This document shows, one piece after another, positions 47,627 through 50,294 of a stretch of DNA of 64,000 bases. The DNA is taken from the NCBI GenBank assembly GCA_963850555.1, contig CAWKLT010000022.1:66543-130542 (forward strand), written 5' to 3'. The stretch comes from an uncultured Chloroflexia bacterium. Lineage in GTDB: Bacteria > Chloroflexota > Limnocylindria > Limnocylindrales > CSP1-4. A program made the position numbers and the translations under genes. The notes below the pieces were generated by a model. It did no database searches. It was not told the origin of the DNA and worked only from the letters and a program-made list of their open reading frames with translations. Each line of letters opens with the position of its first letter. Within the stretch, counting starts at the first letter, position 1.

Positions 47627-50294
47627 CTACTCGTGCCCGCCCGGACCGAGGGCCGCGACCGCACCGTGATCGTGGCCGTGGTCGTGCCCGTTGCCCCCGT
47701 GTCCGTTGCCGCCGGCGCCGATCGCACCCGGCGTCGGCACGCCCGAGATCGTCGGTGGCAGCATCGGCAGCATGCGCCCCGGGTCGATGATCCGGCCGTC
47801 GGCCGCCGCCCGCGTGGCCCAGTCGCGCTCGCGCCGGATGTAGGTGACCTCGGTCTCGCGGTCGATGGCCGCGAGCGCCATGAGGTCGATGTTCGGTTCG
47901 TCGCGGCCCGTGTGCGCGAGCTCGAAGTCGGCGCCGTCGCGCAGCGCGTCGTACGGGCAGGCGTCGACGCAGATCCCGCACAGGATGCAGCGGCTCTCGT
48001 CGACCTCGTACTTCTCGAGCACCCGCGGCTTCGGCATCAGCGCGCCGGTCGGGCACGTCTCGGCGCAGCGCCCGCAGGACACGCACGGGGTGTCGTTGAG
48101 GCTCATGTCGAGCGGCGTCGTGACGAGCGTGTCGAAGCCGATCCGCATGAAGTCGTAGCACGCCGCGCCGACCACCTCGGCGCACACGTTCGCGCACCGC
48201 CCGCAGTCGATGCAGCGGGACGGCTCGCGAAGGATGAACGCGTGCGAATCGTCGCGGATGTAGTCGTGGTTGATGCCGGTGAACCGGTTCTCCGTCACCG
48301 ACCGGTAGCCCGCGCCCTGGTGGTTCTGCGGCTCCAGGGTCTTGAGCGTCGTCCCGTACTCGATCCCCAGCCGCCGCAGGTCGCAGAAGCCGATCGCCTC
48401 GCACGTGCACTGGAGGCAGCGGGTGGACTCGGCGACGGCTGCCTCGGGCGTGTAGGGCAGCTCGTACTCGATGTAGCTGTGGTTGCGTTGGTCGGCGGGC
48501 AGGGCCTGCAGCCGGTAGCGCGATTCCTTCATCTCGGCCGTGAACGGCACGATCGAGAGGAACTCCGGCTGCGGCTCGGCCAGCGTCTGGCGGGTGCGGA
48601 TGGCGTCGAGATCCATGCCCTTGAGGAAGGCGTCCACGGCATAGGCGGCGCGCCGGCCCTCGGCGATGGCCTCGACCACCGTCGCCGCGCCGATCCGCAC
48701 GTCGCCGGTGGCGAAGACGCCGGGACGGCCCGTCGAGAACGTGACCGAATCGGCCTTGAGGCGTCGCTGCTTGGTGGCCTCAGGGCCCTCGTTGCCGGGC
48801 TCGGCCAGCCAATCGAGCTCGGGTCCCTGGCCGATGGCCAGCAACACCCGGTCGCACGGGATCGTGAACTCCGTCCCGGGCGCAGGCTCCGGCCGGCGAC
48901 GGCCGGACGCGTCCGGTTCGCCGAGCTGCATCCGGATGAACTCGACGCCCGTGACCTTGCCGGTCTTCTCGTCCGTGATGACCCGCGTCGGTCCGGCCTG
49001 GAAGATGGCGGTGACGCCTTCCTCGATGGCCTCGTGGACCTCGTCCGCCGCCGGCATGTCCTTCATGTCGCGGCGGTAGACGAGCGTGACCTCGCCGGCG
49101 CCCTGGCGGACGGACGTCCGCGAGCAGTCCATCGAGGTGAAGCCGCCGCCGATGACCACGACGCGCTTGCCGACGTGGTCCGGATAGGGCAGGCCGAGCG
49201 TCGCCGTGCGCAGGTACTCGAGCCCGTCGATGACGCCGTCGGCGTCCTCGTTCGGGATGCCGAGCTTGTTCGTGTCGTAGCAGCCGATGGCCACGACGAC
49301 CGAGTCGAAGCCCTGCATCGTCAGGTCGTCGAGCGTGAAGTCGCGCCCGAGCCCGGCGTTCGTGACCATCTTCGCGCCGAGGCGCATGACCGACTCGTAC
49401 TCGGCCTCGAGGACCTCGACCTTCGGGAGGCGGTACTGCGGGATGCCGTAGCGGAGCATGCCGCCGGGCGCCGGGTCGCGCTCGAAGACCGTGACGTCGT
49501 GGCCGGCGATCAGCAGGTAATAGGCGGCGGCCATGCCGGCAGGGCCGGAACCGATCACCGCAGCCGTGCGCCCCGACTTCGTCTGCTGCTCGAACGGGAC
49601 CGGCGGATCGACCCCTTCGTCCAGCTGCGCCTTGAGGACCTGGTCGCCGGCGTAGCGGTGCGTGTCGCGGATGGCGATCGCCTCATCGACCTCGTCGCGC
49701 CGGCAGTGCTCCTCGCACGGCGCCGGGCAGACCCGCCCGAGGACGGAGGGGAACGGGATCGTCCGCTTGAAGATGCGGGCCGACTCGCGGAAGTTGCCCT
49801 CGGCGTTCGCCTTGAGGAAGCCCGGGATGTCGATGTGGCTCGGGCACTTGTTCTGGCAGGGCGGCAGGCAGTACGCGTTGTGGTCGCTGAAGATCAGCTC
49901 GAGGTTCGTCCGGCGCAGCCGGCGGATCGTCTCGGTCTGGGTCTGGACCTTCATCTCCGGCTCGCACGTGCGCGAGCAGGAGATCGGCGGGTGCTCCTCG
50001 CCCTCGACCTCGACGACGCACATCCGGCAGGCACCGAAGCCCGGCAGCTTGGGTTCGTAGCAGAGCGTCGGGATCTCGATCCCGTTGTCGCGGCAGACCT
50101 CGAGGATCGTCTGGCCCTCGAAGCCTTCGACGACGCGGCCGTCGACCTCGATGCGGATCCGCGGCGTCGACTGGGGCCGCTGCGGCGACTGCGTGTCGAG
50201 CAGGCGATCGGCGAGCGACTCCGCGGACGACTCCGGGGCCGACGTCGCGGTCGTGGCGGGGCGGCCGGGCTGGACGGGCCAGGGTGTCGGTCAT
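47627..50294 (-). CDS. composite electron-input subunit: NuoG-type N-terminal [2Fe-2S] domain + GltD-type FAD/NAD(P)H oxidoreductase + NuoG/HydA-type [4Fe-4S] domains + C-terminal half of NuoI (one frame change near the 5' end)
   Basis: ATG 50294 (ATGA overlap with the upstream stop), then the frame of ORF 47627..50023. Domain motifs in order:
- [2Fe-2S]: 'IEVDGRVVEGFEGQTILEVCRDNGIEIPTLCYEPKLPGFGACRMCVVEVEG...SCSRTC'.
- GltD N-terminal cluster region: 'CLPPCQNKCPSHIDIP...GRVCPAPCEEHC'.
- FAD and NAD(P)H binding: 'AAVIGSGPAGMAAAYYL', 'GGMLRYGIPQYRLPK', 'VVVIGGGFTSMDC', 'FATGDV'.
- [4Fe-4S] domains: 'CIDCGRCANVC...CVSCGRCAETCPTGAL'.
- NuoI-type second motif: '[33 protein letters not shown]'. 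Confidence 0.75.

Follow-up and report, generated by a model that had tools for sequence, protein, structure and literature searches.

Within a complex I operon on a 64,000-nucleotide stretch of an uncultured Limnocylindria genome (Chloroflexota; contig CAWKLT010000022.1), referred to here as the window, is a gene cassette that interrupts nuoI. Its largest product, which we call G′, is a flavin and iron–sulfur (Fe–S) protein of 888 residues. On balance, G′ is the NADPH-oxidising flavin adenine dinucleotide (FAD)/Fe–S ‘A’ subunit of an NfnABC/StnABC-like (Bfu-family) module inserted in nuoI. The simplest reading of the locus is the insertion of an nfnCBA-like cassette with in-frame fusions at both ends. 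It would yield a fusion of the N-terminal half of NuoI to a NuoE/NfnC-like helical domain (I_N::E′), a NuoF/BfuB-like protein (F′), and G′, which carries the C-terminal half of NuoI. The most likely activity of the resulting complex is NADPH (and probably NADH):menaquinone oxidoreduction with proton pumping and without bifurcation.

Domain architecture of G′

Pfam searches of the minus-strand translation (50290 to 47630) divide G′ into a [2Fe-2S] domain, an NfnL/GltD-type region, FAD and NADPH Rossmann domains and a ferredoxin-like domain, after which comes the NuoI half (Table 1). An earlier note, made from the sequence alone, had proposed that a GltD-type FAD/NAD(P)H module lies between [2Fe-2S] and [4Fe-4S] parts of the protein, and this is borne out well beyond chance: Fer4_20 and Pyr_redox_2 are found between Fer2_4 and a group of 4Fe-4S families (dicluster families match residues 729–784), with many further FAD/NAD Rossmann families over residues 244–545. 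The motifs that it quoted are all present in the translation (CLPPCQNKCP, GRVCPAPCEEHC, AAVIGSGPAGMAAAYYL, GGMLRYGIPQYRLPK, VVVIGGGFTSMDC, FATGDV, CIDCGRCANVC and CVSCGRCAETCPTGAL). The Rossmann motifs are GSGPAG, GGMLRYGIP, GGGFTSMD and YRR (2′-phosphate); in NfnB, Tyr-Arg-Arg is given as the site for the NADP phosphate (10.1101/717884). The FAD motif GGMLRYGIP is conserved, and LVYRRDM is present in all 15 Limnocylindria sequences compared.

Residues 45–778 of G′ align in one piece to residues 4–699 of NfnA from Caldicellulosiruptor saccharolyticus (Csac; 9bov_A, E = 4.8e-160) in a search of PDB sequences, and the same residues match Sporomusa ovata StnC (8oh5_C, E = 7e-137). The best stretch for Thermococcus sibiricus NfnA (9n5u_A, E = 2.8e-140) is shorter, spanning residues 41–576, and NfnL/GltD and NuoG/HydA chains that stand alone cover G′ only in part. 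The three A-type chains are also the best Foldseek matches of an AlphaFold2 model of G′ (TMq of 0.73–0.74 over about 770 columns; 0.74 for 9bov_A), which has a mean predicted local distance difference test (pLDDT) score of 79 and is mostly at or above 85 across residues 44–755. The likeness to NfnABC/HydABC-type enzymes drawn in the earlier note holds for the closest PDB sequences (NfnA and StnC, and NfnB for the partner subunit) and, for NfnA and StnC, for the fold.

All Fe–S ligand cysteines of G′ are invariant in an alignment of 90 sequences, including C77, C88, C91 and C105 of the [2Fe-2S] domain and C625, C628, C630 and C636 past the NfnL insertion. The motifs of the ferredoxin-like domain, CIDCGRCANVC ... 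CVSCGRCAETCP, align with CILCGLCIRVC...CISCGQCADICP of Csac NfnA. One ligand departs from the soluble enzymes. In NfnA and StnC the cluster next to FAD, A7 (C7), is ligated by three cysteines and, as fourth ligand, by a strictly conserved lysine, Lys170 (PMC11829005, PMC10482914), and the most frequent variants in 46 soluble NfnA-like sequences have lysine at this position. In G′ the position is His211, and histidine is found in 15 of 15 Limnocylindria and 29 of 29 Thermoleophilia sequences.

The alignment to NfnA stops at G′ residue 778, corresponding to NfnA residue 699 of 1,178, and the NuoI half follows. The C-terminal Fdh/NuoG-like (molybdopterin-fold) domain, which in NfnA holds the A5 cluster and mediates tetramerisation, is absent, as the earlier note had recognised in remarking on the lack of a large molybdopterin-like C-terminal domain. 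G′ does not qualify as NuoG: the TIGR01973 profile scores 92.8 bits (cutoff 470) and matches only residues 47–148, its motifs are split by the NfnL module, it lacks a molybdopterin domain and its gene lies between F′ and nuoJ. Nor does it qualify as GltD, being an 888-residue protein with the domain in its interior, with TIGR01317 and TIGR01318 scores below their cutoffs and with nuo neighbours; no GltB was found among the operon genes or the ten flanking open reading frames (ORFs) scanned. Taken together, the end-to-end PDB alignment, the fold match, the invariant Fe–S ligands and the conserved FAD and NADPH motifs indicate that G′ is an NfnA/StnC-type subunit and not, as first described, a NuoG-like subunit that gained a domain.

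Beyond the NuoI half, G′ ends in a His/Gly-rich tail, GGNGHGGNGHDHGHDHG (47630–47715, minus strand) followed by AVAALGPGGHE. The terminal AVAALGPG(G/R)HE is present in Limnocylindria homologues and missing from the Thermoleophilia clade; the tail may be a metal-binding or docking element.

NuoI is split between two polypeptides

The C-terminal motif of G′, previously taken to be of the NuoG/HydA type, matches the NuoI profile and is the other half of NuoI. In the full-length protein, residues 756–800 match positions 71–115 of TIGR01971 (whole-protein E = 8.9e-13), and a 131-residue C-terminal fragment searched in isolation matches positions 74–116 of 121 (E = 4e-11). The missing N-terminal part is found at the start of I_N::E′, which matches positions 1–63 of the same profile (E = 1.8e-13) and NF004536 (E = 1.2e-14). 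Each half alone scores under the family cutoff, and the profile is covered by complementary pieces, 1–63 and 71–116. PDB chains of TYKY/NuoI likewise match both halves, residues 9–73 of I_N::E′ and the G′ tail. NuoI is here not one polypeptide with two CxxCxxCxxxCP motifs; an intact nuoI is absent from the window, which has only four CxxCxxCxxxC motifs, G′ accounting for three of them and I_N for the other. When aligned to NfnA, the second NuoI motif begins exactly at the start of the A5 motif. With G′ modelled alone, pLDDT falls below 50 over most of residues 761–887; this low confidence in the NuoI half is consistent with, and not proof of, a need for its partner.

The part of I_N::E′ beyond the NuoI half has its best PDB match in NfnC (9bov_C, residues 20–89, E = 2.5e-11). 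I_N::E′ has five cysteines in the window, all in the NuoI part, and the orthologues have exactly five in 61 of 64 cases and six in the other three. The E′ part is predicted to hold no [2Fe-2S] cluster (N1a/C1), because it has no cysteines. The earlier note's NuoE-like partner therefore amounts to a cysteine-free helical N-domain fused to the N-terminal half of NuoI; its other partner, a NuoF-like protein, stands. Between the NuoI half and the NuoE fragment is a strongly conserved linker, DMGGIDTRGRYHVHWGAAETYGERREESALRRSGR (52014–52060, minus strand; residues ~70–110), seen only in Limnocylindria. Its segment RGRYHVHW resembles the strand before motif 2 of intact NuoI, as if the junction had been duplicated at the insertion site.

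A reduced and divergent F′ subunit

Composed of the Pfam domains Complex1_51K and NADH_4Fe-4S, F′ finds its best PDB sequence matches in NfnB, StnB and HydB (E of about 1e-93), with NuoF of complex I further off (1e-71 to 1e-81). It scores 351.9 bits against the NuoF profile TIGR01959 (cutoff 558.65), with the fold and most contact residues present. It aligns to NfnB residues ~113–521, and lacks both the N-terminal thioredoxin-like region of BfuB and the C-terminal ferredoxin-binding domain with two [4Fe-4S] clusters. The contacts of Csac NfnB to NADH and flavin mononucleotide (FMN) are mostly kept (GLRGRGGAGFP with Phe159 and Gly156, Lys164, Glu274 and the GSG loop), and StnB Asp186 is retained as D95. 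Invariant between F′ and the canonical BfuB of a Thermoleophilia locus described below (L081) are GLRGRGGAGFP, K73, GEET, GGPSGG, the GSG loop and D95.

Set against this conservation are several variants. A loop reading N-G-Y-G-A-D-P-A replaces the near-universal N-A-D-E-G-D-P-G, histidine takes the place of the adenine-stacking Phe294 of NfnB, and the N3/B1 cluster motif is C345-x4-C350-x5-C356...C396, with serine for the second canonical cysteine and C345 located five residues before the first. The variant motif NGYGADPASHTDR and the altered N3/B1 motif are conserved across 70 loci, and the loop, histidine and N3/B1 variants are conserved across Limnocylindria loci. F′ is clearly functional in some sense.

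Distribution, selection and origin

Metagenomes are very rich in the G′ family; the best 120 matches there are 83–98% identical to G′ and, where named, come from Candidatus Limnocylindrales or Chloroflexota. The same organisation is present in about 60–70 Limnocylindria loci, including short-read metagenome-assembled genomes (MAGs); many of the relatives are long-read MAGs. After these, the nearest relatives in a library clustered at 50% identity are soluble and NfnA-like, share about 40% identity with G′ and mostly measure 1,000–1,400 residues. Nine homologues of 810–900 residues were checked for a NuoI tail, which only P0148 possesses (816 residues, 43% identity); P0148 stands for a large clade in Thermoleophilia (Actinomycetota). 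Six of the nine are NfnA/FdhA-like and end in ...NNIDHCARL. Such ends, ...NN(V/I)DHCARL inside the Fdh-like domain, are seen in the short NfnA-like homologues P0129, P0161, P0162, P0192, P0210 and P0239, and suggest an in-frame UGA (selenocysteine) called as a stop, in selenocysteine-containing formate-dehydrogenase-type proteins with an NfnL insertion. Limnocylindria and Thermoleophilia are each represented in metagenomes by well over 100 near-full-length clusters at 90% identity, and a profile search with the I_N::E fusion recovered the same two clades only, among its best 120 matches. A cluster look-up for cultured members returned MAG entries only, wherever the source organism was named (Thermoleophilia). 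At present the proteins of these loci go under the labels ‘FAD-dependent oxidoreductase’, ‘formate dehydrogenase major subunit’ or ‘ferredoxin’.

The Thermoleophilia locus (L081) has the gene order of the window, nuoA-B-C-D-H-[I_N::E]-B-G′-J-K-L..., and a fuller set of cofactor sites. Its E part retains a four-Cys [2Fe-2S] domain, and its B subunit is a full BfuB of 638 residues with canonical CNGDEGDPGAFMDR and ESCGKCVPCR motifs and with N- and C-terminal cluster domains. The bifurcating BfuBC core (C1, B5/B2 and B3/B4 motifs) is thus complete in L081 and incomplete in the F′ and E′ of the window. In a Thermoleophilia sub-clade (P0148; L081, 10001–12451; and close relatives) G′ has lost YRR (WLSPCAR) and its second Rossmann motif has changed from GGG to GDG, with the full BfuBC core kept; the FAD site of these proteins may have a different nucleotide specificity, or none.

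G′ sequences from both nuo-linked clades form one monophyletic group against the 46 soluble NfnA-like sequences in 100 of 100 neighbour-joining bootstraps (679 shared columns, tail excluded), and the derived histidine ligand of A7 is common to both. This monophyly, the shared histidine and a locus order shared with the full BfuBC of Thermoleophilia together argue that the insertion in nuoI happened once, with a complete Nfn-type Bfu module, and that Limnocylindria, the reduced form, later lost C1 and the B2–B5 sites. Orthologues of the module are under purifying selection: the ratio of non-synonymous to synonymous substitution rates (dN/dS) is 0.12–0.18 for G′, 0.12–0.25 for I_N::E′ and 0.18–0.40 for F′, compared with 0.14–0.19 for nuoD. 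The evolutionary rate of F′ is about double that of G′ (dN of 0.13–0.31 versus 0.07–0.095).

Operon organisation and reading frames

Lying on the minus strand of a window of about 70% G+C, the G′ gene is part of a complex I operon, as the earlier note had stated, in which nuoA, B, C, D and H precede the cassette and nuoJ, K, L, M and N follow it. The order is nuoA-B-C-D-H-[I_N::E′]-F′-[G′::I_C]-J-K-L-M-N, with overlapping or near-abutting genes and no terminator-like sites at the coding-strand junctions. The cassette is located between nuoH and nuoJ, within nuoI, and not in the nuoEFG slot. The membrane arm and the Q-module are ordinary, NuoB and NuoD having ordinary N2 ligand motifs and quinone-site signatures.

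Table 1 Features of the complex I operon and its inserted module (all on the minus strand; residue numbers are those of the encoded protein)
Feature	Position	Strand	Basis or remark
nuoA	~56215–56508	–	Pfam Oxidored_q4
nuoB	55457–56227	–	Pfam Oxidored_q6
nuoC	54906–55460	–	Pfam Complex1_30kDa
nuoD	53628–54878	–	Pfam Complex1_49kDa
nuoH	52279–53641	–	Pfam NADHdh, 2.1e-90; 1-nt insertion at ~52700 breaks frame
I_N::E′ fusion gene	51591–52268	–	225 residues; NuoI N-terminal half and NuoE/NfnC N-terminal helical domain
NuoI N-terminal half, I_N::E′ residues 12–75	52044–52235	–	single CETCFQCAQACP motif
NuoE/NfnC N-terminal helical domain, I_N::E′ residues 118–187	51708–51917	–	no cysteines
F′ gene	50291–51589	–	432 residues; NuoF/BfuB core only (FMN/NADH fold and N3/B1 cluster region)
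G′ gene (NfnA/StnC-type subunit::NuoI C-terminal half)	47627–50294	–	888 residues once 1 base at ~50266–50270 is removed
[2Fe-2S] domain, cluster A1/N1b type, G′ residues 44–119	49934–50161	–	Fer2_4, 4.7e-20
NfnL/GltD-type 2×[4Fe-4S] region, clusters A6/A7, G′ residues 141–220	49631–49870	–	Fer4_20, 4e-19
FAD and NADPH Rossmann domains, G′ residues 244–545	48656–49561	–	Pyr_redox_2, 2.3e-30
Four-Cys motif CLQCTCEAIGFC past the NfnL insertion, G′ residues 625–636	48383–48418	–	matches Csac NfnA CLECGCMDYFEC
HydA/NfnA-type ferredoxin-like 2×[4Fe-4S] domain, G′ residues 686–751	48038–48235	–	weak Fer4_Nqo3 and Fer4 families
NuoI C-terminal half, second CxxCxxCxxxCP motif, G′ residues 756–800	47891–48025	–	TIGR01971
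C-terminal extension with His/Gly-rich tail GGNGHGGNGHDHGHDHGAVAALGPGGHE	47630–47890	–	translation; conserved in Limnocylindria homologues; low AlphaFold2 confidence
nuoJ	47025–47619	–	Pfam; GTG start 7 nt past the G′ stop
nuoK	46711–47028	–	Pfam
nuoL	44707–46714	–	Pfam; 1-nt insertion at 45839
nuoM	43048–44655	–	Pfam
nuoN	41555–43051	–	Pfam

The coordinates and the length of about 888 residues given for G′ in the earlier note are correct, but in the sequence as given the ORF is broken by one extra base. The ATG at 50294 overlaps the stop codon of F′ (ATGA) and is out of frame with the body of G′, leaving an ORF of only 798 residues from an ATG at 50023; sampled homologues at 83–98% identity have 863–891 residues and the N terminus MTDTLARPER.PATT.... 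At 50266–50270 the window has one base more than three related genomes (90–95% identity at the DNA level, one of them a short-read MAG), and deletion of one C there restores a protein of 888 residues starting MTDTLARPAGRPATTATSAPESS. Read-through of a TGA or a non-ATG start, considered since F′ and the body of G′ share a frame, is rejected in view of the ATGA-overlap starts of the homologues and of the extra base.

Further isolated one-base insertions relative to the three relatives, each found only in the window, are located at 39082, 39181, 41286, 44587, 45839, 52700, 56437, 56582, 56708, 57316, 57836 and 58671, several of them in GGG/CCC runs; those at 39082, 39181, 41286, 57316, 57836 and 58671 are outside the operon and mostly in such runs. 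Together with the extra base at 50266–50270, these insertions disrupt nuoH, nuoL and the beginning of G′, and probably further genes. Because the insertions are specific to the window and occur outside the operon as well, and because the orthologues are intact and under purifying selection, we conclude that the extra bases are probably assembly consensus errors, in a pattern typical of long reads, rather than marks of pseudogenisation. In a homologue of 1,075 residues from another MAG (P0080) the G′ ORF runs on into nuoJ, which is probably the same kind of frameshift artefact and not a true fusion.

NuoB (55460–56227, minus strand) has an N-terminal extension of about 100 residues before its Oxidored_q6 domain, the Pfam match beginning at residue 122. 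No Pfam family matches two ORFs with high G+C at third codon positions, one directly downstream of nuoN (40618–41544, minus strand) and one upstream of the operon (58106–59269, plus strand). Genes in the surroundings resemble housekeeping genes (AhpC/TSA, CorA, MFS, inositol-1-phosphate synthase, kynureninase-like, rhodanese and a PMT-family glycosyltransferase of 1,246 residues). A promoter and terminator scan gave results at chance level and was uninformative, and tRNA and Rfam searches of the window returned no matches.

Proposed assembly and electron path

The domain homologies, the NuoI split, gene order, conservation and purifying selection are shown by the results above, and the anatomy (split NuoI, NfnA-type subunit, reduced BC core) has good support; the physical assembly, electron path, substrates and direction that we infer are as follows. 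The module would be anchored covalently at both ends through the NuoI halves, which, with four cysteines each, would together rebuild N6a/N6b next to NuoB and NuoD. The helical N-domain of NfnC occupies, in NfnABC, a cleft formed by NfnA and the NfnB Rossmann fold; fusion of I_N to the counterpart of this domain would tether F′ to the complex.

In the soluble NfnABC, electrons follow the path NADPH–FAD–A7–A6–A3–A2–A1–B1–FMN, and A2–A4–A5 is a side branch and a dead end. In the complex proposed here they would pass from NADPH to FAD, to A7 (three cysteines and a histidine), A6, the post-insertion cluster and the ferredoxin-like cluster pair, and from there to N6a/N6b in the split NuoI, to N2 in NuoB and to menaquinone, with proton pumping by NuoH, A, J, K, L, M and N. 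The branch towards A5 would have been turned into the exit wire to N6a/N6b, a proposal that follows from the second NuoI motif starting exactly where the A5 motif of NfnA starts. A side branch from the A1 [2Fe-2S] cluster to F′ (a B1-type cluster and probably FMN) is a probable second entry, for NADH. The second NAD(P)H flavin entry into complex I suggested by the earlier note is plausible and is our leading model. B1–FMN–C1 is the minimal bifurcation site (PMC11829005); as C1 is missing this site cannot form, and the B2–B5 sites of BfuB are also gone, so the Limnocylindria form should not bifurcate to ferredoxin.

Several points weigh against this model. The loss of two acidic loop residues and the replacement of an N3/B1 cysteine by serine make the FMN/NADH competence of F′ uncertain, and two freely wired flavins might waste NADPH through transhydrogenation to NAD+. 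Every member found comes from an uncultured MAG, and the copy in the window is itself frameshifted in nuoH, nuoL and G′ (which we attribute to assembly error). The A2, A3 and A4 cluster names placed on G′ motifs are carried over from papers on related enzymes.

Alternative explanations

The doubts about F′ lead to an NADPH-only complex I, in which F′ and E′ would be structural remnants without NADH turnover and the FAD of G′ the sole electron entry. We regard this as unlikely, though of real weight. The exchange of DEGDPG for GYGADP, the second N3/B1 Cys→Ser, Phe294→His, the roughly twofold faster evolution of F′ than of G′ and the loss of the C1 and B2–B5 sites all point that way, and a silent FMN site would prevent futile NADPH→NAD+ transhydrogenation. 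Speaking for a working site are the FMN/NADH scaffold that F′ shares unchanged with the canonical BfuB of L081, the conservation of the replacement cysteine C345 in all Limnocylindria F′ and a dN/dS of F′ still well below 1. The complex might also run in reverse, using the proton-motive force to drive electrons from menaquinol to NADP+ and providing NADPH for oligotrophs whose electrons enter at the level of quinone. Complex I is reversible, and the A7 Lys→His exchange suggests a retuned potential. An analogous role has been proposed for the Sulfurimonas complex I with an NfnB-like subunit (10.1101/717884). As the sequence holds no indication of direction, and no gene for a quinone-level electron donor was seen among the ten flanking ORFs scanned, we consider reverse operation improbable.

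Continued coupling to ferredoxin, by bifurcation or confurcation as in NfnABC or the predicted Nuo-Bfu, could be argued from the Thermoleophilia sister clade, which keeps the full BfuBC core (C1, B5/B2, B3/B4), and from the prediction that Nuo-Bfu confurcates NADH and reduced ferredoxin (PMC9304861). It is very improbable in Limnocylindria, where E′ lacks cysteines in the window and in the orthologues, F′ lacks the BfuB terminal domains that hold the gating and ferredoxin-binding clusters, and the published minimal site cannot form. No more credible, and slightly less so in our estimate, is a soluble Nfn-like transhydrogenase or GltD-family enzyme that is merely encoded within the nuo operon. 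The G′, F′ and E′ core is indeed homologous to soluble NfnABC, but in-frame fusions join the two cassette ends to complementary NuoI halves in a window without an intact nuoI, the Fdh-like tetramerisation domain of soluble NfnA is absent, the arrangement is conserved across two phyla, and the operon and flanking ORFs scanned contain no GltB. That the operon is a decaying pseudogene cluster, dead in this genome, would account for the frame changes within three of its genes (nuoH, nuoL and G′). The same kind of one-nucleotide insertion outside the operon, the absence of these insertions from three relatives including a short-read MAG, and intact orthologues under purifying selection leave it next to no probability.

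Comparison with known systems

Closest in subunit make-up are NfnABC and StnABC (9BOV/9BP5, 8OH5/8OH9 and 9N5U/9N5V), whose A subunits, like G′, combine a [2Fe-2S] cluster, an NfnL/GltD insertion with two [4Fe-4S] clusters, FAD, an NADPH site and ferredoxin-like clusters; the F′ core is nearest to NfnB/StnB, and E′ to the N-domain of NfnC. The differences are that G′ has a NuoI half in place of the Fdh-like C-domain and A5, that its A7 ligand is histidine where theirs is the strictly conserved lysine, and that the Limnocylindria form lacks C1, B2/B5 and B3/B4. Whereas the known enzymes are soluble tetramers, the module of the window is encoded in a membrane complex I and fused to it. A membrane-bound form goes unmentioned in both structural studies of NfnABC and in the Stn paper.

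Nuo-Bfu, predicted in Geobacter, Deferribacteres, Planctomycetes and Nitrospirae (Schut et al. 2022, PMC9304861), likewise has a Bfu-type ABC module encoded amid nuo genes, from which electrons are predicted to enter a membrane arm that pumps protons and reduces menaquinone. There, BfuABC replaces NuoEFG in a normal 14-subunit A–N order with a separate NuoI, whereas in the window the cassette interrupts nuoI. The BfuA of Nuo-Bfu is NuoG-like and lacks the NfnL/NADPH domain, in contrast to the Nfn-type A subunit of the window, and its BfuB keeps B2–B5, which the stripped BC core of Limnocylindria does not (PMC9304861). The same study also describes a soluble Nfn-Bfu, and reports neither an Nfn-type A subunit in a nuo operon nor a split NuoI (PMC9304861). 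In the chemoautotrophic campylobacterium Sulfurimonas denitrificans, the GltD/NfnB-like FAD/Fe–S protein Suden_1824, of the NADPH type, is likewise encoded in a complex I operon and hypothesised to provide a link to NADP(H), but it is a separate protein in place of NuoF, beside two NuoG copies, and the campylobacterial NuoI is unsplit, with no NfnA-type fusion and no NuoF-like partner (10.1101/717884).

Relative to canonical complex I (for example Thermus thermophilus Nqo1-3 and Nqo9), the N-terminal [2Fe-2S]/[4Fe-4S] motifs of G′ match NuoG residues ~1–150 and 117–267, F′ has the NuoF fold, the NuoI halves match TYKY/Nqo9, and the membrane arm and Q-module are of the usual kind. The window differs in having no molybdopterin-like domain and no N1a, in placing NuoI on two polypeptides and the input module between nuoH and nuoJ, and in its extra FAD/NADPH site. 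The component modules are each already known; no account of their arrangement in complex I turned up in the searchable literature on Limnocylindria complex I, on GltD/NuoG in Chloroflexi and on Nuo-Bfu, a body of incomplete coverage. It stands at about even chances that these loci form an undescribed class of complex I, derived from an nfnCBA-type cassette in nuoI and having a two-chain NuoI, an NADPH entry that bypasses N5→N6a, and a four-pool form in Thermoleophilia beside the stripped form in Limnocylindria.

Implications for electron input to complex I

The proteins of these loci have generic annotations, and an ORF-based reading of the window needs frame correction. The locus offers a clear natural example of a module inserted in the gene of a core subunit, with NuoI split and rebuilt from two chains, and the reduction series from a full to a stripped Bfu core bears on the evolution of the electron-input modules of complex I. 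With its full BfuBC core, the Thermoleophilia form could be one proton-pumping machine joining NADH, NADPH, ferredoxin and menaquinone.

As a rule complex I is strictly linked to NADH, and cells need separate transhydrogenases (PntAB, SthA and Nfn) to tie the NADPH pool to respiration. If the proposal is true, a built-in NfnA-type site would link proton pumping directly to the oxidation of NADPH, or in reverse to the reduction of NADP+, in two very abundant uncultured lineages of soil and freshwater, Limnocylindria and Thermoleophilia.

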